A stretch of DNA of 5,457 nt, taken from IMG/VR virus record IMGVR_UViG_2778261154_000004, one strand, 5' to 3'. Made by a program: the position numbers and the translations under genes. Every line of letters starts with the position of its first letter. Positions within the stretch are counted from its first letter, which is position 1. Shown in pieces: positions 143 through 5,162 of the stretch. The notes beneath the pieces were generated by a model. That model saw nothing but the letters and a program-made list of their open reading frames with translations. It had not been told where the DNA came from and ran no database searches. This DNA comes from a virus. Taxonomy: Duplodnaviria > Heunggongvirae > Uroviricota > Caudoviricetes.

Positions 143-316
143 ATGAAAACTGGTGAGGAGGTTTATTATGAAGCAGCTATGGATGCTGTCAGAGAAGGAT
201 TTGATAGTTCGTCAATTAGTCGTTGCTGTAATGGCGAAAGCTCATATCACAAAGGAAGATTCTGGCGATTTGCAAATGAAACAATGAAAGCGCGATGGGG
301 AGACAGGGCGGCATGA
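143..316 (+). CDS. NinD-like small protein (57 aa)
   Basis: ORF ends in an ATGA stop/start overlap with the NinE start at 313, the lambda nin-region coupling style. The 57-aa length from ATG 143 matches lambda NinD as I recall it. No SD precedes 143 and the frame stays open back to ATG 29, so the start is uncertain. Confidence 0.45.
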
Positions 317-489
317 GACGACAGCGACGAAGTATCACCGACATCATCTGCGAAAACTGCAAATACCTTCCAACGAAACGCTCCAGAAATAAACGCAAGC
401 CAATCCCAAAAGAATCTGACGTAAAAACCTTCAACTACACGGCTCACCTGTGGGATATCCGGTGGCTAAGACATCGTGCGAGGAAATGA
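313..489 (+). CDS. ninE: NinE family protein
   Basis: Translation [58 protein letters not shown] matches my recollection of lambda NinE almost residue for residue. Start 313 chosen over 295 because of the ATGA overlap with the upstream ORF. Confidence 0.85.
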
Positions 490-530: not shown

Positions 531-839
531 TTAAACGAAGCGGATCTGGAGTTTTTTTCCAGTAGCGCGGGCGAATTTTTTTAGTGTGGCAAATGATGGG
601 CCGCTGATACCTGATGCGAGATTACTTTCCATTCTGGTGATCGCGGTCGCTTTTGTTCCCATTCGCTCGGCAACTTCAGCCTGAGTTAAGCCAGCTTCTT
701 TGCGTGCTGCCAGCATTTCATCAAGCAGTGCGAATTCGTCAGCGATAGCGTCGTATTCTGCTTTAAAAGCCGGGTCTTCCATCCATTTGGCTGCCATTTC
801 GTCGTGTGTCATGGTGGGGAGAGTGCGTTTACCAGTCAT
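531..839 (-). CDS. XRE-family HTH antitoxin (HigA-like)
   Basis: 102 aa with an HTH motif (GLTQAEVAERMGTKATAITRME) and C-terminal ATLKKFARATGKKLQIRFV. On the minus strand AAGGAGGT (complement of 846-853) lies 5 nt upstream of ATG 839-837. The start overlaps the upstream toxin stop by 11 nt. Confidence 0.8.
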   Translation of the reverse strand: MTGKRTLPTMTHDEMAAKWMEDPAFKAEYDAIADEFALLDEMLAARKEAGLTQAEVAERMGTKATAITRMESNLASGISGPSFATLKKFARATGKKLQIRFV

Positions 840-1158
840 GCTTAACCTCCTTCATTCTGGTTTCAGCTTTCTTGCGTTCGGCTGGCGGTGTTTTCTGCGT
901 TTTCTTTACAAAACTATGCAGCATGATGATGCGTTTCCCTGTCAGAGTGCAGTAAAAAACACGCGCGATCCCATCGTTGCCTTTAATTCTGAGTTCGAAA
1001 AGCCCGTCACCAAAGGCGCTGGTGTGAGGTTCTCCGAGATTGCTGCCATATATCTTCATACGTTCAACGAGATGTTGGTATCGGGCACGCATACTCAATG
1101 GAAGCCGATCGACTTCCAGCCTTACATCTTCACTGTAGTATTCGATAGTGTAGTTCAT
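829..1158 (-). CDS. RelE/ParE-superfamily toxin (HigB / phage Gp49-like, DUF891-type)
   Basis: 109 aa from MNYTIEYY; motif GDGLFELRIKGNDGIARVFYCTLTGKRIIMLHSFVKKTQKTPPAE is typical of the Gp49/HigB-2-type toxin fold. Toxin-first order with overlap into the HTH antitoxin. Start 1158 chosen; in-frame ATGs at 1170 and 1293 also exist. Confidence 0.75.
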   Translation of the reverse strand: MNYTIEYYSEDVRLEVDRLPLSMRARYQHLVERMKIYGSNLGEPHTSAFGDGLFELRIKGNDGIARVFYCTLTGKRIIMLHSFVKKTQKTPPAERKKAETRMKEVKHDW

Positions 1159-1203: not shown

Positions 1204-1233
1204 TTGACGACAACACATATCCGGGGCTATATT
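1204..1233 (+). promoter_or_regulatory. Candidate sigma70 promoter (TTGACG - 18 nt - TATATT) facing rightward
   Basis: -35 TTGACG at 1204-1209, 18-nt spacer, -10 TATATT at 1228-1233. Predicted start near 1240, exactly where the first hairpin begins. Judged by eye only. Confidence 0.35.
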
Positions 1234-1239
1234 CCTCAT

Positions 1240-1316
1240 ACGCCAGCAAAATCTGGCGTCGGGATTGGCGTCCCGGATATCGAAACGGTGCATAACCGCG
1301 CTGGCGGTTTTTTTAT
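1240..1316 (+). ncRNA. Candidate small structured RNA or terminated leader (about 75 nt, three stem-loops)
   Basis: Hairpin 1 at 1240-1259 (ACGCCAG/CTGGCGT, perfect 7 bp, 6-nt loop); hairpin 2 at 1260-1275 (CGGGA/TCCCG); terminator hairpin 1294-1309 followed by a T-run. The CUGGCG motif recurs three times. No ORF with an RBS on this strand. Confidence 0.35.
1294..1316 (+). terminator. Rho-independent terminator (plus strand)
   Basis: AACCGC-GCTG-GCGGTT stem-loop (6 bp, 4-nt loop) followed by T7 (1308-1314). On the minus strand the hairpin is not followed by a U-tract, so it is unidirectional. Confidence 0.55.
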
Positions 1317-1476
1317 GCGCTAAGCACAGTCACATTCGCGATTTATGGTGGGCTGTGTGGGGGAGTTGAGAGACTCGCCGGATGTTTCGACCGGTTACGC
1401 CAACCCTGCACAGTTCACCACCCAGCGATTGGCGTCGCAGGTGGTGAGTTAAAAACCATCGAAACGCGAGGTCGTT

Positions 1477-2163
1477 ATGACTGTTCAGATTTCTGTCAAA
1501 AACCTTTCCCCTGTTACCTATAACCAGATTCCGGTAATCACAACTGAGTTGCTTGCCCGCCTTTATGGAACAGAAACAATCCGTATACAGCAGAATCACC
1601 ATGAAAATAAATCTCGGTTTATTGAGGGAAAGCACTTCTTTAAAGCTGTTGGTGATGAACTCAGAAATTTGCGACTAGTTTTAAACGAGTCGCAAAATGA
1701 GGTGAAAATCTCTCCCAAAACCCGCTCGCTCATCCTCTGGACAGAACGAGGCGCAGCCCGCCACGCAAAAATGCTCGAAACCGATCAGGCGTGGGAAGTG
1801 TTCGAAAAACTGGAAGACTGCTATTTCAGCCAGACTTCGAAAAGCGCAGGTCATCACGAGAAGAAAACCAGCGAGCTTTCTGCAAAAGATGCAAACAGTC
1901 TGGTATGGTTGTGGGATTATGCCAACCGCTCACAGGCATTATTCCGCGAACTGTATCCGGCATTAAAACAAATTCAATCGAACTATTCCGGCAGATGCTA
2001 CGACTACGGTCATGAGTTCTCGTATGTTATCGGAATGGCGAGAGACGTTTTAATCAATCACACACGAGATGTTGATATTAATGAGCCAGACGGACCAACG
2101 AATCTTTCTGCATGGGTAAGACTTAAGAACAAAGAATTACCTCCTTCACTACATCACTACTGA
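1477..2163 (+). CDS. ORF6N-domain phage protein (Roi / antirepressor-like), 228 aa
   Basis: RBS GCGAGG at 1466-1471, 5 nt before ATG 1477. N-terminal region ([48 protein letters not shown] ... [31 protein letters not shown]) fits the ORF6N pattern seen in lambdoid Roi/Ant-like proteins. C-terminal half unassigned. Confidence 0.7.
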
Positions 2164-2181
2164 CAGATTGCCAACGCAACG

Positions 2182-2204
2182 ACCCAGCTTCGGCTGGGTT
2201 TTTT
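2182..2204 (+). terminator. Rho-independent terminator (plus strand)
   Basis: ACCCAGC-TTCG-GCTGGGT: perfect 7-bp stem with a TTCG tetraloop (2182-2199), followed by a T-run to 2204. Lies 19 nt after the stop of the upstream gene. Confidence 0.7.
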
Positions 2205-2237
2205 ATTGCTGAATTTTCAATATGAGAGGACATGACA

Positions 2238-2960
2238 ATGAACGAGCTGATAAATAGCAACGCCATCAAAATGACCAGCATTGAAATCGCTGAGTTGGTG
2301 GGTAAGCGTCATGACAATGTGAAACGTACCATCGAAACGCTGGCTAAAAATGGTGTTATCCGGCTTCCTCAAATTGAGGATTGTGGAAGAATCAATGGGT
2401 TAGGCTTAAATCAAAGTTTTTGTGTGTATGTATTCGAAGGCGAACAAGGAAAGCGAGACAGTATTGTCGTTGTAGCCCAGTTGTCGCCGGAATTCACCGC
2501 TCGTCTTGTTGACCGTTGGCGAGAGCTTGAAGAAACTGCGGTTAATATCCCCAAAACGCTACCAGAAGCGTTGCGCCTTGCTGCTGATCTTGCTGAGCAG
2601 AAAATGCAACTGGAAAACCAGCTCGCAATTGCCGCACCTAAAGTTGAGTTTGCCGATCGCGTTGGCGAGGCCAGCGGAATTTTGATTGGAAACTTTGCAA
2701 AGGTTGTTGGTATTGGTCCAAACAAACTGTTTGCGTGGATGCGCGATCACAAAATCCTTATTGCTTCAGGTTCCCGGCGCAATGTGCCAATGCAGGAATA
2801 TATGGATCGTGGCTATTTCGCAGTGAAAGAAACAGCGGTCAACACAAATCACGGAATACAGATATCGTTCACCACAAAAATCACCGGGCGTGGTCAACAG
2901 TGGCTGACCAGAAAGCTGCTCGATAACGGAATGCTGAAAGTAACCGGGGAGGCTGCTTAA
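2238..2960 (+). CDS. Phage regulatory protein Rha N-domain with KilA-C/ANT C-domain (antirepressor-like)
   Basis: N-terminus MTSIEIAELVGKRHDNVKRTIETLAKNGVI is a classic Rha signature; the C-terminal half resembles antirepressor KilAC/ANT domains. SD AGAGGA at 2225-2230 gives 7-nt spacing to ATG 2238 (ATG 2232 is only 1 nt from the SD). Stop overlaps the next start (TAATG). Confidence 0.8.
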   Translation: MNELINSNAIKMTSIEIAELVGKRHDNVKRTIETLAKNGVIRLPQIEDCGRINGLGLNQSFCVYVFEGEQGKRDSIVVVAQLSPEFTARLVDRWRELEETAVNIPKTLPEALRLAADLAEQKMQLENQLAIAAPKVEFADRVGEASGILIGNFAKVVGIGPNKLFAWMRDHKILIASGSRRNVPMQEYMDRGYFAVKETAVNTNHGIQISFTTKITGRGQQWLTRKLLDNGMLKVTGEAA

Positions 2961-3250
2961 TGGCTAACCTACGCAAAGAAGCACGCGGCAGAGAATGCCA
3001 GGTACGTATTTACGGCGTATGCAATGGCAACCCTGAAACTACAGTTCTGGCACATTACCGGATGGCTGGAATTTGCGGAACGGGAATGAAGCCTGACGAC
3101 CTGATCGGCGCATGGGCTTGTAGCGCGTGTCACGATGAAATCGACCGACGCACCCATAATCTCGACAACAAAGACGCCAGGCTTTACCACCTCGAAGGCG
3201 TGATCAGGACGCAGGCGATACTGCTGAAGGAGGGGAAGATTAAGCCATGA
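2960..3250 (+). CDS. DUF1364 family Cys-rich protein (YbcO-like)
   Basis: 96 aa with conserved cysteines and an ACSACHDEIDRRTH motif; resembles my recollection of E. coli DLP12 YbcO, which also sits just upstream of rusA. SD GGGGAGG at 2946-2952. ATGA overlap with the rusA start. Confidence 0.75.
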   Translation: MANLRKEARGRECQVRIYGVCNGNPETTVLAHYRMAGICGTGMKPDDLIGAWACSACHDEIDRRTHNLDNKDARLYHLEGVIRTQAILLKEGKIKP

Positions 3251-3609
3251 ACGAATATCAGTTTGTGCTTCCATACCCGCCGTCGCTGAACACCTACTGG
3301 CGAAGACGGGGAAGCCGATACTACATCAGCGATAAAGGCCAGAAATACCGAAAAGACGTTCAGCAAATCATCCGCCAACTCAAGTTAGATATTTTCACCA
3401 AAGCACGACTCCGCATCAAAGTCATCGCAGACGTTCCAGACTCCCGCCGCCGCGACCTCGATAACATCCTGAAGGGGCTACTCGACTCTCTTATCCACGC
3501 CGGATTTGCGGAAGACGACGAGCAATTCGATGACATTCGCGTAATTCGTGGTGTGAAAGTACCAGGCGGAAGGCTTGGAATAAAAATCACCGAACTGGAG
3601 AACGTATGA
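3247..3609 (+). CDS. rusA: Crossover junction endodeoxyribonuclease RusA (Holliday junction resolvase)
   Basis: 120 aa; N-terminus and the RRRDLDN, AGF..DD and GGRL motifs match the RusA family (cf. E. coli RusA, 120 aa). SD GGAGG at 3229-3233; ATGA overlaps at both ends. Confidence 0.9.
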   Translation: MNEYQFVLPYPPSLNTYWRRRGSRYYISDKGQKYRKDVQQIIRQLKLDIFTKARLRIKVIADVPDSRRRDLDNILKGLLDSLIHAGFAEDDEQFDDIRVIRGVKVPGGRLGIKITELENV

Positions 3610-3794
3610 ACGCCACAATTCAAACGATACCAGAGCTTCTTATCCAGACACGAGGCAATCAGACCGAAGTGGCGAGGATGCTTTCCTGCGCAAGAGGAAC
3701 AGTGCTCAAGTACAACCGAGACAGCAAAGGCGAGCGTCACGTAATAGTTAACGGCGTCCTGATGGTCAAACAGGGCAAGAGGGGAAGACGATGA
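3606..3794 (+). CDS. ninH: NinH-like small HTH protein
   Basis: 62 aa; GNQTEVARMLSCARGTVLKY ... HVIVNGVLMV closely resembles lambda NinH as recalled. ATGA overlaps with rusA upstream and Q downstream. Confidence 0.75.
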   Translation: MNATIQTIPELLIQTRGNQTEVARMLSCARGTVLKYNRDSKGERHVIVNGVLMVKQGKRGRR

Positions 3795-4414
3795 GACTCG
3801 AAAGCGTAGCTAAATTTCATTCGCCAAAAAGCCCGATGATGAGCGACTCACCACGGGCTACGGCTTCTGACTCTCTTTCCGGTACTGATGTGATGGCTGC
3901 TATGGGGATGGCGCAATCACAAGCCGGATTCGGAATGGCTGCATTTTGCGGTAAGCATGAACTCAGCCAGAACGACAAACAAAAGGCTATCAACTATCTG
4001 ATGCAATTTGCACACAAGGTATCGGGGAAATACCGTGGTGTGGCAAAGCTCGAAGGAAACACTAAGGCAAAGGTACTGCAAGTGCTCGCAACATTCGCTT
4101 ATGCGGATTATTGTCGTAGTGCCGCGACGCCGGGCGCAAGATGCAGAGATTGCCACGGTACAGGCCGGGCAGTTGATATAGCAAAAACAGAGCAGTGGGG
4201 GAGAGTTGTTGAGAAAGAGTGCGGAAGATGTAAAGGCGTCGGTTATTCAAGGATGCCAGCAAGCGCAGCATATCGCGCTGTAACGATGCTAATCCCAAAC
4301 CTTACTCAACCCACCTGGTCACGCACTGTTAAGCCGCTGTATGACGCCCTGGTGGTGCAATGCCACAAAGAAGAGTCAATCGCAGACAACATTTTGAATG
4401 CGGTCACACGTTAG
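3791..4414 (+). CDS. Q: Late-gene antiterminator Q (lambda type)
   Basis: 207 aa beginning MRLESVAKFHSPKSPMMSDSPRATASDSL and including the CRDCHGTGR...CGRCKG zinc-binding region; essentially identical over its length to lambda Q as I recall it. SD AGAGGGGAAG precedes the start. Confidence 0.95.
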   Translation: MRLESVAKFHSPKSPMMSDSPRATASDSLSGTDVMAAMGMAQSQAGFGMAAFCGKHELSQNDKQKAINYLMQFAHKVSGKYRGVAKLEGNTKAKVLQVLATFAYADYCRSAATPGARCRDCHGTGRAVDIAKTEQWGRVVEKECGRCKGVGYSRMPASAAYRAVTMLIPNLTQPTWSRTVKPLYDALVVQCHKEESIADNILNAVTR

Positions 4415-4456: not shown

Positions 4457-4500
4457 TTGACTTTTTGAATAAAGTTGGGTAAATTTGACTCAAGAATGGC
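4457..4500 (+). promoter_or_regulatory. Late promoter pR' with the promoter-proximal part of the qut site
   Basis: -35 TTGACT (4457-4462), 17-nt spacer, -10 TAAATT (4480-4485), as in lambda pR'. Sequence from the Q stop to about +9 is near-identical to lambda, including a -10-like element in the initial transcribed region (AAGAAT here, AACGAT in lambda). Confidence 0.8.
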
Positions 4501-4628
4501 AGATTTATATCCGTTCACATTCTTTCGGTTTTTTACCCACCTCATCTTTAAGTTGTGACTGCTCCCCGCCCTGTCGGGCGAGGGTTTACGGCGTTTTTCG
4601 CTAAGCGCACTGACATGCGCATCATAAA

Positions 4629-4674
4629 CTCGGGAGCACATAGGAATAGAGCCTGCTTTCGGGATTTTTTATTT
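4629..4674 (+). terminator. tR'-like Rho-independent terminator
   Basis: CTCGGGAGCA (4629-4638) pairs with TGCTTTCGGG (4654-4663): 10 bp including 3 G-U wobbles, followed by A T6 A TTT. The 3' side AGAGCCTGC...TTTCGGGATTTTTTAT resembles the lambda tR' region. Confidence 0.45.
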
Positions 4675-4749
4675 GGGTCAGTCGTATAAAGGTCATTACG
4701 GAAGGCTGTTAACCTTCTTATCGTGGTTCGAGTCCACGCTGTCCCGCCA
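4675..4749 (+). tRNA. tRNA-Asn-like, anticodon GUU (possibly degenerate)
   Basis: Cloverleaf traced by hand: acceptor GGGTCAG/CTGTCCC (6 bp plus a T-T mismatch at 4:69), U8, D-arm with A14/G18G19/A21, perfect anticodon stem GAAGG/CCTTC with loop CTGTTAA, perfect T-arm CGTGG-TTCGAGT-CCACG, discriminator G, encoded CCA. Confidence 0.55.
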
Positions 4750-4754
4750 AACAT

Positions 4755-4830
4755 GCTGGTTTAGCTCCAATGGTAGAGCAGTCGCCTTGTAAGCGAATGG
4801 GTAGCGGTTCAAGTCCGTTAACCAGCACCA
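4755..4830 (+). tRNA. tRNA-Thr, anticodon UGU
   Basis: Perfect 7-bp acceptor stem GCTGGTT/AACCAGC, D-arm GCTC-CAATGGTA-GAGC, anticodon loop CTTGTAA (U33, UGU, A37), T-arm AGCGG-TTCAAGT-CCGTT, discriminator A, encoded CCA. Minor deviations: C at position 14 and a G-A closing pair in the anticodon stem. Confidence 0.75.
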
Positions 4831-4946: not shown

Positions 4947-5162
4947 ATGAAATCCATGGACAAAATATCAACGGGCATTGCCTACGGCACCTCCGCAGGC
5001 AGTGCCGGCTACTGGTTTTTACAGTGGCTTGATCAGGTCAGTCCATCACAGTGGGCTGCGATTGGTGTGCTGGGAAGTCTGCTTCTGGGGCTTCTGACTT
5101 ATCTGACGAATCTGTATTTCAAAATAAGAGAAGATAAGCGTAAGGCTGCGAGAGGTGAATAA
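4947..5162 (+). CDS. S: Class II holin / pinholin (phage 21 S-type) with dual-start motif
   Basis: 71 aa starting [28 protein letters not shown] with two hydrophobic segments and C-terminal [13 protein letters not shown], matching the phage 21 pinholin as recalled. SD GGAGGTGAGG at 4935-4944. Met1 (4947) and Met4 (4956) give the antiholin/holin dual start. Upstream in-frame ATG 4869 lacks an SD. Confidence 0.9.

Follow-up and report, generated by a model that had tools for sequence, protein, structure and literature searches.

In phage P1, C4 RNA and Icd govern expression of the antirepressor Ant (PMC8201110). In Gifsy-1, anrP is transcribed from the isrK promoter, its translation rises more than 100-fold when IsrK is provided in trans, and AnrP induces the prophage (PMC4825925). 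The published models differ in emphasis, since C4 acts as a repressor in P1, whereas IsrK of Gifsy-1 activates by way of a coupled upstream ORF (PMC8201110, PMC4825925). That specificity in these systems resides in the pairing sites is a principle known since the work on P1 and P7. In phage phi24B, uninduced lysogens show weak expression of ant, and after norfloxacin an ant knockout reaches 27–56% of the pR' reporter activity of the wild type and can be complemented (PMC3064807); the knockout effect was partial, and an action of Ant on CI is worded there as 'may well, but not necessarily'.

Here we analysed a window of 5,457 nt, i.e. the whole stretch of phage DNA under study, in which an initial annotation had placed two consecutive plus-strand genes, each with its own ribosome-binding site, separated by a strong terminator and encoding an ORF6N protein (ORF1) and a Rha plus KilAC protein (ORF2). 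These elements were all recovered (Table 1), and Pfam profile search of both proteins agreed with the domain calls. The further view that the two are accessory genes of generally unknown target did not hold, as both correspond to lambdoid genes already named in the literature, Ant and Roi, and the phi24B record annotates the same ninE-ant-roi tandem. We read the region, with a probability of roughly 70%, as two independent, previously described lambdoid-prophage modules, an RNA-switched ant operon (1204–2208) and roi (2238–2960). Since both genes have been described before, the ant-roi locus is already known and the finding is an ordinary one.

Table 1. Features of the ant and roi region; positions count from the first nucleotide of the window
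Feature	Position	Strand	Details
Promoter-like site of ant operon	1204–1233	+	TTGACG, 18 nt spacer, TATATT; 10/12 consensus matches
c4-a1b1 target motif, overlapping IsrK	1227–1279	+	Rfam RF03163, 49.6 bits (gathering 46.7)
IsrK-type sRNA	1240–1314	+	Rfam RF01394, 77 bits (gathering 50)
b1 site	1264–1272	+	ATTGGCGTC; loop of IsrK hairpin 2
a1 site	1279–1287	+	ATCGAAACG; linker of IsrK-type sRNA
Intrinsic terminator of IsrK-type sRNA	1294–1314	+	Terminator scan
C4-type antisense RNA	1341–1425	+	Rfam RF01695, 68.7 bits (gathering 45), full-length model
35-codon leader ORF	1345–1452	+	Overlaps C4; position as Gifsy-1 orf45 and P1 icd; translation uncertain
C4 a' loop	1382–1390	+	ATGTTTCGA; complementary to a sites
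C4 b' segment	1395–1404	+	TTACGCCAAC; complementary to b sites
b2 target copy	1428–1436	+	ATTGGCGTC; exact 9-mer repeat of b1
a2 target copy	1458–1466	+	ATCGAAACG; exact 9-mer repeat of a1
ant (ORF1)	1477–2163	+	228 aa; antirepressor-type chimera, ORF6N N-terminal and P22_AR_C C-terminal domain
Intrinsic terminator, end of ant operon	2181–2208	+	GACCCAGC-TTCG-GCTGGGTTTTTT, hairpin then T-run
roi (ORF2)	2238–2960	+	240 aa; Rha-type N-terminal helix-turn-helix and KilAC/ANT C-terminal domain
IHF consensus match in roi	2390–2402	+	AATCAATGGGTTA; single WATCAANNNNTTR match in the window

The start codon of ant is preceded at a spacing of 5 nt by the Shine–Dalgarno sequence GAGG (1468–1471). Pfam models place ORF6N at residues 12–99 of ORF1 (75.3 bits against a cut-off of 27.8) and P22_AR_C at residues 128–200 (98.9 bits against 22.4). 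The C-terminal half, for which no recognisable domain had been claimed, thus has one, and the last 104 residues are 88% identical to residues 197–300 of P22 Ant. P22_AR_N, with which P22 Ant begins, is absent from ORF1 and its place is taken by ORF6N; hence ORF1 is a chimera sharing half of P22 Ant and not a full-length orthologue. Gifsy-1 AnrP is 65% identical to the ORF6N half (residues 1–123), and phi24B Ant is 71% identical to the whole of ORF1. Moreover, ORF1 matches PHROG 377, 'anti-repressor Ant', with E = 2.5e-80, and an NCBI protein 100% identical to it carries the name 'phage antirepressor Ant'; the complete genome GCA_900450175.1 encodes exactly this protein. Sequence searches of the Protein Data Bank with ORF1 and ORF2 returned no relevant match, and NCBIfam held no model matching either protein. 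The predicted fold of ORF1 was of low confidence (mean pLDDT 39, pTM 0.30), from an alignment of 22 sequences whose listed homologues were all at least 78% identical.

The shared C-terminal domain alone does not prove that ORF1 has the activity of P22 Ant, and a direct transcriptional role of ORF1 would account for the same phenotypes. ORF6N is among the domains proposed to bind DNA and is a member of the domain-swapping 'Bro network' found in regulators (PMC10111431); ORF1 might accordingly be a DNA-binding transcription factor in which ORF6N directly switches on lytic or late promoters, with no binding of a repressor. The known phenotypes of homologues are promoter outputs, i.e. the pR' reporter in phi24B (PMC3064807) and antQ expression after AnrP (PMC4825925), repressor binding is demonstrated in neither of these papers as far as their available text goes, and AnrP, which has only the ORF6N half in common with ORF1, still induces its prophage. 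However, the C-terminal 104 residues resemble those of P22 Ant, the classical repressor-binding antirepressor, the same C4 switch governs the repressor-binding P1 Ant (PMC8201110), and the N-terminal domains are interchangeable among cargo genes, which would be easier to explain by a common 'anti-immunity' role than by a common DNA target. We consider direct promoter activation unlikely. In the antirepressor reading, which we prefer, Ant most likely inactivates the prophage repressor through non-covalent binding, by which induction would be sped or triggered. The window itself contains no immunity region. The role in lysogeny control suggested by the initial annotation fits the published phenotypes of close homologues of ORF1, as loss of phi24B ant weakens activation of the late promoter upon induction (PMC3064807) and Gifsy-1 AnrP causes its prophage to be induced (PMC4825925).

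The initial annotation passed over the IsrK/C4 control region (1204–1476) ahead of ant. The IsrK, C4 and c4-a1b1 models all matched this leader at full length and in the order expected of an immI-type leader. The IsrK-type sRNA consists of two hairpins, and the minimum-free-energy fold of the C4 segment agrees with the structure of the Rfam model. Transcription from the promoter-like site is predicted to start at ∼1240, where the IsrK match begins; its −35 and −10 blocks are kept in E. coli Z1323, PA28 and Gifsy-1, and the site is probably active. A single base lies between the end of a2 and the ant Shine–Dalgarno sequence. With this control region upstream, ORF1 forms an operon of its own that is closed by the terminator, and module 1 (1204–2208) belongs among the self-contained antirepressor operons of which P1/P7 immI and Gifsy-1 isrK-anrP are examples. 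The ATG of the 35-codon leader ORF is ∼106 nt from the predicted transcription start, and the first AUG of Gifsy-1 orf45 is at +107. Because this ORF ends 24 nt ahead of the ant ATG and its reading frame is not kept in PA28, translational coupling to ant is doubtful.

Two other modes of control were considered for the leader. Gifsy antirepressor genes are controlled by LexA, for which reason the ant promoter was inspected for a LexA box; this was rejected since no exact CTGT-N8-ACAG match occurs there. A one-mismatch match at 1198–1213 is at chance level (3 found, 1.8 expected), and it sits where the alignment with relatives breaks down, the relatives being without it. A match to sar RNA was found in P22 alone and nowhere in the window, even in a permissive Rfam scan.

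For the RNA steps, pairing control of translation and C4 processing are assigned by homology, and the activation by IsrK, like the induction phenotypes, is taken from papers on homologues. Transcription would begin at ∼1240 from a promoter that is probably repressor-independent, and most transcripts would end at the first terminator, giving a short IsrK-like RNA which bears a1 and b1. Read-through transcripts would include the C4-type RNA, whose a' and b' could pair with a2 and b2 just ahead of the ribosome-binding site, and translation of ant would thus be kept off. Surplus short IsrK RNA, whose target sequences are identical, would titrate C4 away and make the message accessible.

The layout of leader plus cargo gene is shared with Gifsy-1, PA28, E. 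coli Z1323 and phi24B, and six further phages have the same leader layout, with ORF6N, Bro-N, AntA or Rha as cargo domains. A search with the leader DNA matched 278 phage records, mostly of Stx phages and usually with no feature annotated at that place; in the phi24B and PA28 records, the leader upstream of ant is present and unannotated. Across 10 loci, the a1/a'/a2 and b1/b'/b2 sites co-vary three ways. The a':a2 duplex in these loci has a mean energy of −10.4 kcal/mol for cognate and −5.9 kcal/mol for non-cognate pairs, and the corresponding values for b':b2 are −9.8 and −7.0 kcal/mol. At least eight a-types and at least five b-types are present among 11 loci. For instance, phi24B and the window have the same a-type and differ in b-type (ATTAGCAC versus ATTGGCGT), whereas the a-type of Gifsy-1 is TCACCG and that of the window TCGAAAC. 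The three-way co-variation of pairing sites provides a handy natural data set on RNA–RNA specificity.

One may speculate that the a and b sites make up a combinatorial immunity type, and that IsrK of one prophage titrates C4 of another with which it has a site in common, so that the induction of co-resident prophages, Stx prophages included, is coupled; we hold this to be distinctly unlikely. If true, titration by a foreign RNA would release the antirepressor of the other prophage, which amounts to cross-talk at the RNA level, and a chimeric Ant with the C-terminal domain of P22 Ant could carry this cross-talk on to the level of proteins. Within roi, at 2331–2339, the a-site sequence ATCGAAACG occurs a third time, and this copy was considered as a C4 target linking ant and roi. 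PA28 roi has the identical a-site sequence, yet the a' loop of PA28 C4 differs, and phi24B shares the a' loop of the window while its roi is without the a-site. As the third site does not co-vary in these two phages, we treat it as a coincidence and the link was rejected.

The terminator between the two genes has a folding energy of −16 kcal/mol. P22, PA28 and E. coli Z1323 have exactly the same stem-loop and T-run, and the matching position in P22 (16012–16035) is annotated as the ant terminator in the P22 record. No promoter-like site was found in the interval from the terminator to roi. The terminator likely keeps transcripts from the ant promoter out of roi, rusA and the late-gene activator Q, and N-antiterminated pR transcripts should pass it.

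For roi, the Shine–Dalgarno sequence GAGAGGA (2224–2230) lies 1 nt from an alternative ATG at 2232, which would give 242 aa, and 7 nt from the ATG at 2238; based on this spacing, 2238 is the better start. The same start is used by the gene calls on the same contig and by RefSeq, and HK022 roi has no upstream ATG. Pfam assigns residues 14–101 of ORF2 to Phage_pRha, barely above the cut-off (33.4 versus 29.9 bits), and residues 128–230 to ANT/KilAC (112.7 bits). HK022 Roi is 87% identical to ORF2 over 240 residues and near-identical from residue 76 to the end; the PA28 'DNA binding protein Roi' is 94% and phi24B Roi 82% identical, and P1 KilA is 57% identical to residues 73–234. Judged by these identities, ORF2 is the orthologue of HK022 Roi and an ordinary nin-region gene, for which 'antirepressor' is a mere domain name (KilAC/ANT).

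HK022 Roi, in work attributed to Clerget and Boccard (1996), is reportedly a site-specific DNA-binding protein that acts with IHF in lytic growth. Lytic growth of HK022 is said to depend on IHF, with roi mutations relieving the dependence, and a Roi-binding site is said to adjoin an IHF site, both within the roi gene. HK022 roi keeps an IHF consensus (AATCAATGATTTA) despite diverged surroundings, and the match at 2390–2402 is a candidate for the IHF site reported there. Two papers that cite the Roi work disagree as to whether its effect on lytic growth is favourable or adverse.

The surroundings of the two genes bear on whether they belong together. The earlier placement of the pair where lambda carries ninF and ninG is only roughly right: the Stx phage PA28 has ant, an orf, ninF, roi and ninG together. 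The window, like HK022, has ybcO-rusA in place of ninG, and the genes after roi (ybcO, rusA, ninH and Q) follow the HK022 order and are nearly identical to it. Gifsy-1 anrP adjoins Q. Relatives of ORF2 occur in 1630 phage records, about four times the 409 with relatives of ORF1, and the former include ICP1 and Salmonella phages of roughly 43 kb, which we take to be strictly lytic.

Ant and Roi could nevertheless be imagined as one two-gene system, either of cooperating antirepressors or of an antirepressor and a protein that assists or modulates it. They are neighbours here and in phi24B, as well as in several hundred genomes of E. coli (483 contain at least 80% of the stretch 1300–3000), and both proteins fall within one domain-swapping network (PMC10111431). 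However, a strong terminator conserved with P22 intervenes, HK022 has roi with neither ant nor a C4 or IsrK match, Gifsy-1 has anrP with no roi annotated, and PA28 places the orf and ninF between the two. Neither do the counts of phage records correspond, nor is there meaningful sequence similarity between the proteins. We regard a two-gene system as most improbable, and the label of a tandem antirepressor pair falls with it: ant and roi are not a functional pair but two independent modules adjacent by chance.

A toxin–antitoxin pair lies immediately upstream of the leader in the window, and neither mnt nor arc is present there. As the pair is missing from otherwise collinear relatives, it is a separate insertion.

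Alternatively, the chief targets of one or both genes might be other phages or the defences of the host, by way of superinfection exclusion, anti-defence or cross-induction of co-resident prophages, instead of the phage's own lysis–lysogeny switch. Heterologous repressors are acted on by P22 Ant, and antirepressors of Salmonella are said to act across prophages, so activity beyond the own prophage would have precedents, and the toxin–antitoxin neighbour could be taken in the same sense, but its separate insertion speaks against this. PADLOC gave weak matches of ORF1 to models of the candidate system PDC-S05 (E about 5e-7) and nothing for ORF2. These matches cover a single shared domain, ORF6N, and the models represent candidate, unvalidated systems; a defence role for ORF1 was thus dropped, and the suggestion of anti-defence is left with no pointer beyond the domain level. 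The suggestion of a superinfection role was refuted for the homologue, as phi24B Ant had no effect on superinfection (PMC3064807). A role mainly directed at other phages or defences is therefore very unlikely.

Within the reading as two independent modules, the fitting labels are ant (ORF6N/P22_AR_C antirepressor, IsrK/C4-controlled) and roi, instead of 'tandem antirepressors'. The unannotated 270 bases ahead of ant hold the control logic, namely promoter, IsrK, C4 and duplicated targets, and anyone who studies how such phages are spontaneously induced or release toxin should reckon with this RNA switch. Outside correct annotation, the importance of the locus is small.

Compared with known systems, phi24B (vB_EcoP_24B, HM208303) is alike in the order of ninE, RNA leader, ant, terminator and roi, in the domain make-up of Ant and Roi, and in an IsrK/C4 leader detected by Rfam, which its record leaves unannotated and the available sections of PMC3064807 do not mention. 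It differs in having ninG after roi, where the window has ybcO-rusA, and the toxin–antitoxin insertion upstream is found only in the window. Gifsy-1 shares a1b1/IsrK, C4, an ORF6N protein and a terminator in the same order, its C4 being probably the stable RNA named STnc1160 by the authors (PMC4825925). Unlike ORF1, AnrP has no P22_AR_C and a different C-terminus; the Gifsy-1 locus is just downstream of Q, outside the nin region, and its terminator is IsrJ and not the P22 ant terminator.

In immI of P1/P7 (c4-icd-ant), as in the window, C4 and the antirepressor message come from one transcript, and specificity differences define the immunity types (PMC8201110). Duplicated a and b targets flank C4 in both, and of these the downstream copies sit at the ribosome-binding site. 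In contrast to P1/P7, the window has no icd homologue but only the doubtful 35-codon ORF, a cargo protein of another domain type, and a first target pair contained in a separately terminated sRNA, IsrK. P22 Ant resembles ORF1 in the C-terminal 104 residues and is followed by the identical terminator, whereas its control by Mnt, Arc and sar RNA differs from C4/IsrK in the window, and P22 ant is beside the tailspike gene while ant of the window is in the nin region. HK022 shares Roi, the downstream ybcO, rusA, ninH and Q, and an IHF consensus within roi; it has ninF upstream of roi and no ant operon. The first ∼75 residues of HK022 Roi, i.e. the Rha-type helix-turn-helix, are mosaic and diverged from those of ORF2, and the DNA-site specificity of ORF2 may thus differ from that of HK022 Roi.

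ORF1 (ant) and ORF2 (roi), which the initial annotation had called tandem antirepressor-type genes, are present as described in this lambdoid prophage nin-to-lysis segment of the E. coli/Shigella group (contig NJNE01000141.1 of assembly GCA_002467185.1; see table). Each has its own Shine–Dalgarno sequence (GAGG, 5 nt 5′ of ATG 1477, and GAGAGGA, 2224-2230), and Pfam searches returned the domains named for them, ORF6N in ORF1 (residues 12-99, 75.3 bits) and Rha plus KilAC in ORF2 (Phage_pRha, 33.4 bits, just over the cut-off of 29.9; ANT/KilAC, 112.7 bits). The C-terminal half of ORF1, previously left without a domain, is P22_AR_C (residues 128-200, 98.9 bits, cut-off 22.4). By alignment, ORF1 is chimeric: over residues 125-228 it shares 88% identity with the final 104 residues of the Salmonella phage P22 antirepressor Ant, whose N-terminal domain is P22_AR_N instead of ORF6N, and residues 1-123 are 65% identical to Gifsy-1 prophage AnrP, which shares ORF6N but has a different C-terminus. 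Over its full length, ORF1 has 74% identity with the Stx phage PA28 ‘antirepressor’ and 71% with Ant of Stx phage phi24B; a 100% identical NCBI protein is named ‘phage antirepressor Ant’, and the family has >6500 relatives in the protein collection.

A control region 5′ of ant, consisting of IsrK, C4 RNA and their targets, had been overlooked. In an Rfam scan of the window, three plus-strand matches, each exceeding its gathering score, lie immediately 5′ of ORF1, and the start predicted from the preceding promoter-like site (∼1240) is where the IsrK match begins. Two 9-mers are each present twice within this leader, as first target sites (a1, b1) and as second copies (a2, b2), with a2 ending one base before the ant Shine–Dalgarno sequence, and the C4 RNA carries complements of both (a′, b′). 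ATCGAAACG is found exactly a third time, inside roi at 2331-2339, within 13 nt (ACCATCGAAACGC) that are repeated from 1455-1467; neither in PA28 nor in phi24B does this roi site follow the C4 type, and it is probably a coincidence.

Features of the window and of the leader upstream of ant
Feature	Position	Strand	Source
ninE	313-489	+	
HigA-like helix-turn-helix antitoxin (HTH_3)	531-839	-	
Gp49/HigB-like toxin	829-1158	-	
Promoter-like site (TTGACG, 18 nt spacer, TATATT)	1204-1233		
c4-a1b1 (RF03163)	1227-1279	+	Rfam
IsrK (RF01394)	1240-1314	+	Rfam
b1, ATTGGCGTC, in IsrK hairpin loop	1264-1272		
a1, ATCGAAACG	1279-1287		
IsrK own terminator	1294-1314		
C4 antisense RNA (RF01695)	1341-1425	+	Rfam
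a′ loop, ATGTTTCGA, in C4 RNA	1382-1390		
b′ segment, TTACGCCAAC, in C4 RNA	1395-1404		
b2, ATTGGCGTC	1428-1436		
a2, ATCGAAACG	1458-1466		
ORF1 (ant)	1477-2163	+	
Terminator	2181-2208		
ORF2 (roi)	2238-2960	+	
ybcO	2960-3250	+	
rusA	3247-3609	+	
ninH	3606-3794	+	
Q	3791-4414	+	
tRNA-Asn	4675-4749	+	
tRNA-Thr	4755-4830	+	
Holin	4947-5162	+	
Lysozyme, incomplete	5162 to window end	+	

The leader was compared with nine other loci, all with Rfam IsrK and C4 matches followed by a gene (E. coli Z1323, PA28, Gifsy-1, an Actinobacillus phage, Enterobacter phage Tyrion, Salmonella phage 118970_sal3, VT2phi_272, O157 typing phage 9 and phiv142-3); phi24B, read separately, has the same pairing scheme. 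The a and b sites vary among loci, and within each locus a1, a′ and a2 shift together, as do b1, b′ and b2. The a site and a′ loop are TCGAAAC and GTTTCGA in the window, GAAAAAGG and CCTTTTTC in PA28, TCACCG and CGGTGA in Gifsy-1, and CTAAGTGG and CCACTTAG in phiv142-3; b-site pairings include TTGGCGT/ACGCCAA, TTGGAAC/GTTCCAA and TTAGCAC/GTGCTAA. Predicted C4 duplexes are clearly stronger with their own targets than with those of other loci (mean a′:a2 energy −10.4 versus −5.9 kcal/mol; mean b′:b2 −9.8 versus −7.0 kcal/mol), predicted values for a1 and b1 are similar, and in several loci a2 overlaps the Shine–Dalgarno sequence itself.

Between the two genes lies the strong terminator reported at the outset, with an 8-bp GC-rich stem, a TTCG loop, a T-run and a folding energy of −16 kcal/mol. 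In the DNA alignment, P22 homology begins within ORF1 and continues past its stop codon into this element; the stem-loop and T-run are the same in P22, PA28 and an E. coli prophage, and the P22 record labels the corresponding element ant terminator. Thus, the terminator is the conserved end of the ant cassette.

In a lysogen, the promoter upstream of IsrK, whose activity we infer, would yield mainly the short IsrK RNA. Read-through RNA would carry C4, and pairing of its a′ and b′ with the a2 and b2 copies at the ribosome-binding site of ant would keep translation off; since IsrK carries the same target sequences, it could compete for C4 and open the ant message. Ant would then antagonise the prophage repressor, presumably by binding it, resulting in faster induction. 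PMC3064807 describes weak phi24B ant expression in uninduced lysogens, which fits a promoter that is probably outside repressor control; it also describes an ant knockout in which late-promoter activity after norfloxacin was only 27–56% of wild type, was restored by complementation, and superinfection was unaffected. The terminator would block ant-promoter transcripts from roi, rusA and Q. Between this terminator and roi, no promoter-like site was found, so roi, as with other nin genes, presumably relies for its expression on pR transcription antiterminated by N.

For ORF2, the position of GAGAGGA favours ATG 2238 over ATG 2232; gene calls on the window's contig and RefSeq use ATG 2238, and HK022 roi does not have the upstream ATG. 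Sequence comparison identifies ORF2 as a Roi orthologue, with 87% identity to the HK022 Roi ORF (241 residues), near-identical from residue 76 on with a mosaic N-terminal helix-turn-helix part, 94% to PA28 ‘DNA binding protein Roi’ and 82% to phi24B Roi; over its C-terminal part, identity with P1 KilA is 57%. Downstream of roi, HK022 ybcO, rusA, ninH and Q are collinear with and nearly identical to those of the window. Roi, the subject of Clerget and Boccard 1996, is reportedly a DNA-binding protein that binds within its own gene beside an IHF site, and is said to make HK022 lytic growth IHF-dependent; later papers cite that work for a role in lytic growth. The single IHF consensus match across the whole window, at 2390-2402 within roi, is kept in HK022 roi despite differing flanking bases and is suggestive as a candidate for that site. 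ORF2 relatives occur in 1630 phage records, including Vibrio ICP1 and roughly 43-kb Salmonella phages, which we take to be strictly lytic; given this range, ‘antirepressor’ is a domain label for ORF2 and putative as a function.

Could ant and roi work as a pair? In phi24B, too, the genes are direct neighbours and their annotated domains are the same, and among 5426 complete E. coli genomes, 483 contain at least 80% of the 1300-3000 stretch. However, HK022 has roi and no ant, with neither C4 nor IsrK match in the Rfam scan; in Gifsy-1 the isrK-anrP unit lies just downstream of Q with roi not annotated; and in PA28 an orf and ninF separate the two. Moreover, ORF1 relatives are in 409 phage records versus 1630 for ORF2, and the two proteins have no similarity to each other. 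The evidence argues against a functional pair, and the adjacency is ordinary nin-region mosaicism.

Elsewhere in the window, the minus-strand toxin and antitoxin genes share 11 nt and form an insertion (531-1158) with ninE on one side and the ant promoter on the other; a 154-aa toxin ORF reaching 1293 is probably an over-call. The pair is not present in the E. coli Z1323 and phi24B regions, otherwise collinear with the window, and VT2phi_272 has an opposite-strand ‘addiction module antidote’ gene just 5′ of its IsrK/C4 leader. Downstream of Q, a promoter-like site (4457-4485; TTGACT, 17 nt spacer, TAAATT) precedes the tRNA genes and holin; 4457-4830 is the slot of pR′ and tRNA or stx cargo in Stx phages, and no toxin gene was found there in the window. 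An ORF at 29-316, with a weak NUMOD-like match, is the counterpart of the 3′ part of a 200-aa NUMOD4/HNH endonuclease gene, intact 5′ of ninE on a sister contig. Its frame reads as broken by the first ∼28 bases, suggesting that the contig stops at a repeat or an insertion sequence; several IS elements lie nearby in the complete genome with the identical ant protein.

The tandem is thus real, correctly located and already known, with published counterparts for all its elements; the only useful addition is that the feature includes the control region 5′ of ant. The leader carries no annotation in the records examined for phi24B and PA28, and other phage records matching it likewise mostly have no annotated feature beneath the match. 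In Salmonella phage 118970_sal3, a 380-aa ‘putative antirepressor’ CDS (1138-2280) spans the IsrK and C4 matches (1492-1680), with its Rha domain beginning only at residue 220; the true start is probably after the C4 RNA, and the deposited annotation looks over-extended.

The ant-roi tandem is published for phi24B (PMC3430580; PMC3064807). The leader follows the same logic as the P1/P7 immI operon, whose antirepressor, Ant, is made under the control of C4 RNA and Icd (PMC8201110), and with ant has the same anatomy as the Gifsy-1 isrK-orf45-anrP locus. There, according to PMC4825925, anrP is transcribed from the isrK promoter as a long untranslated RNA, anrP translation increases >100-fold when short IsrK is supplied in trans, the isrK promoter is needed for a stable RNA (STnc1160) 3′ of IsrK, and AnrP induces the prophage. 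The orf45/STnc1160 region (34131-34214, minus strand) gave a full-length Rfam C4 antisense RNA match (69 bits); the available part of PMC4825925 likens it to P4 seqA/CI without naming P1-type C4. Behind the leader, genes have an exchangeable N-terminal domain, which is ORF6N, Bro-N, AntA or Rha, in agreement with the ‘Bro network’ of domain swapping, and the C4/isrK ‘immunity RNAs’ that go with it, described in PMC10111431. The known counterparts are P1/P7, Gifsy-1 and the Rfam families for the RNA switch, that network for domain shuffling, and HK022 for Roi.
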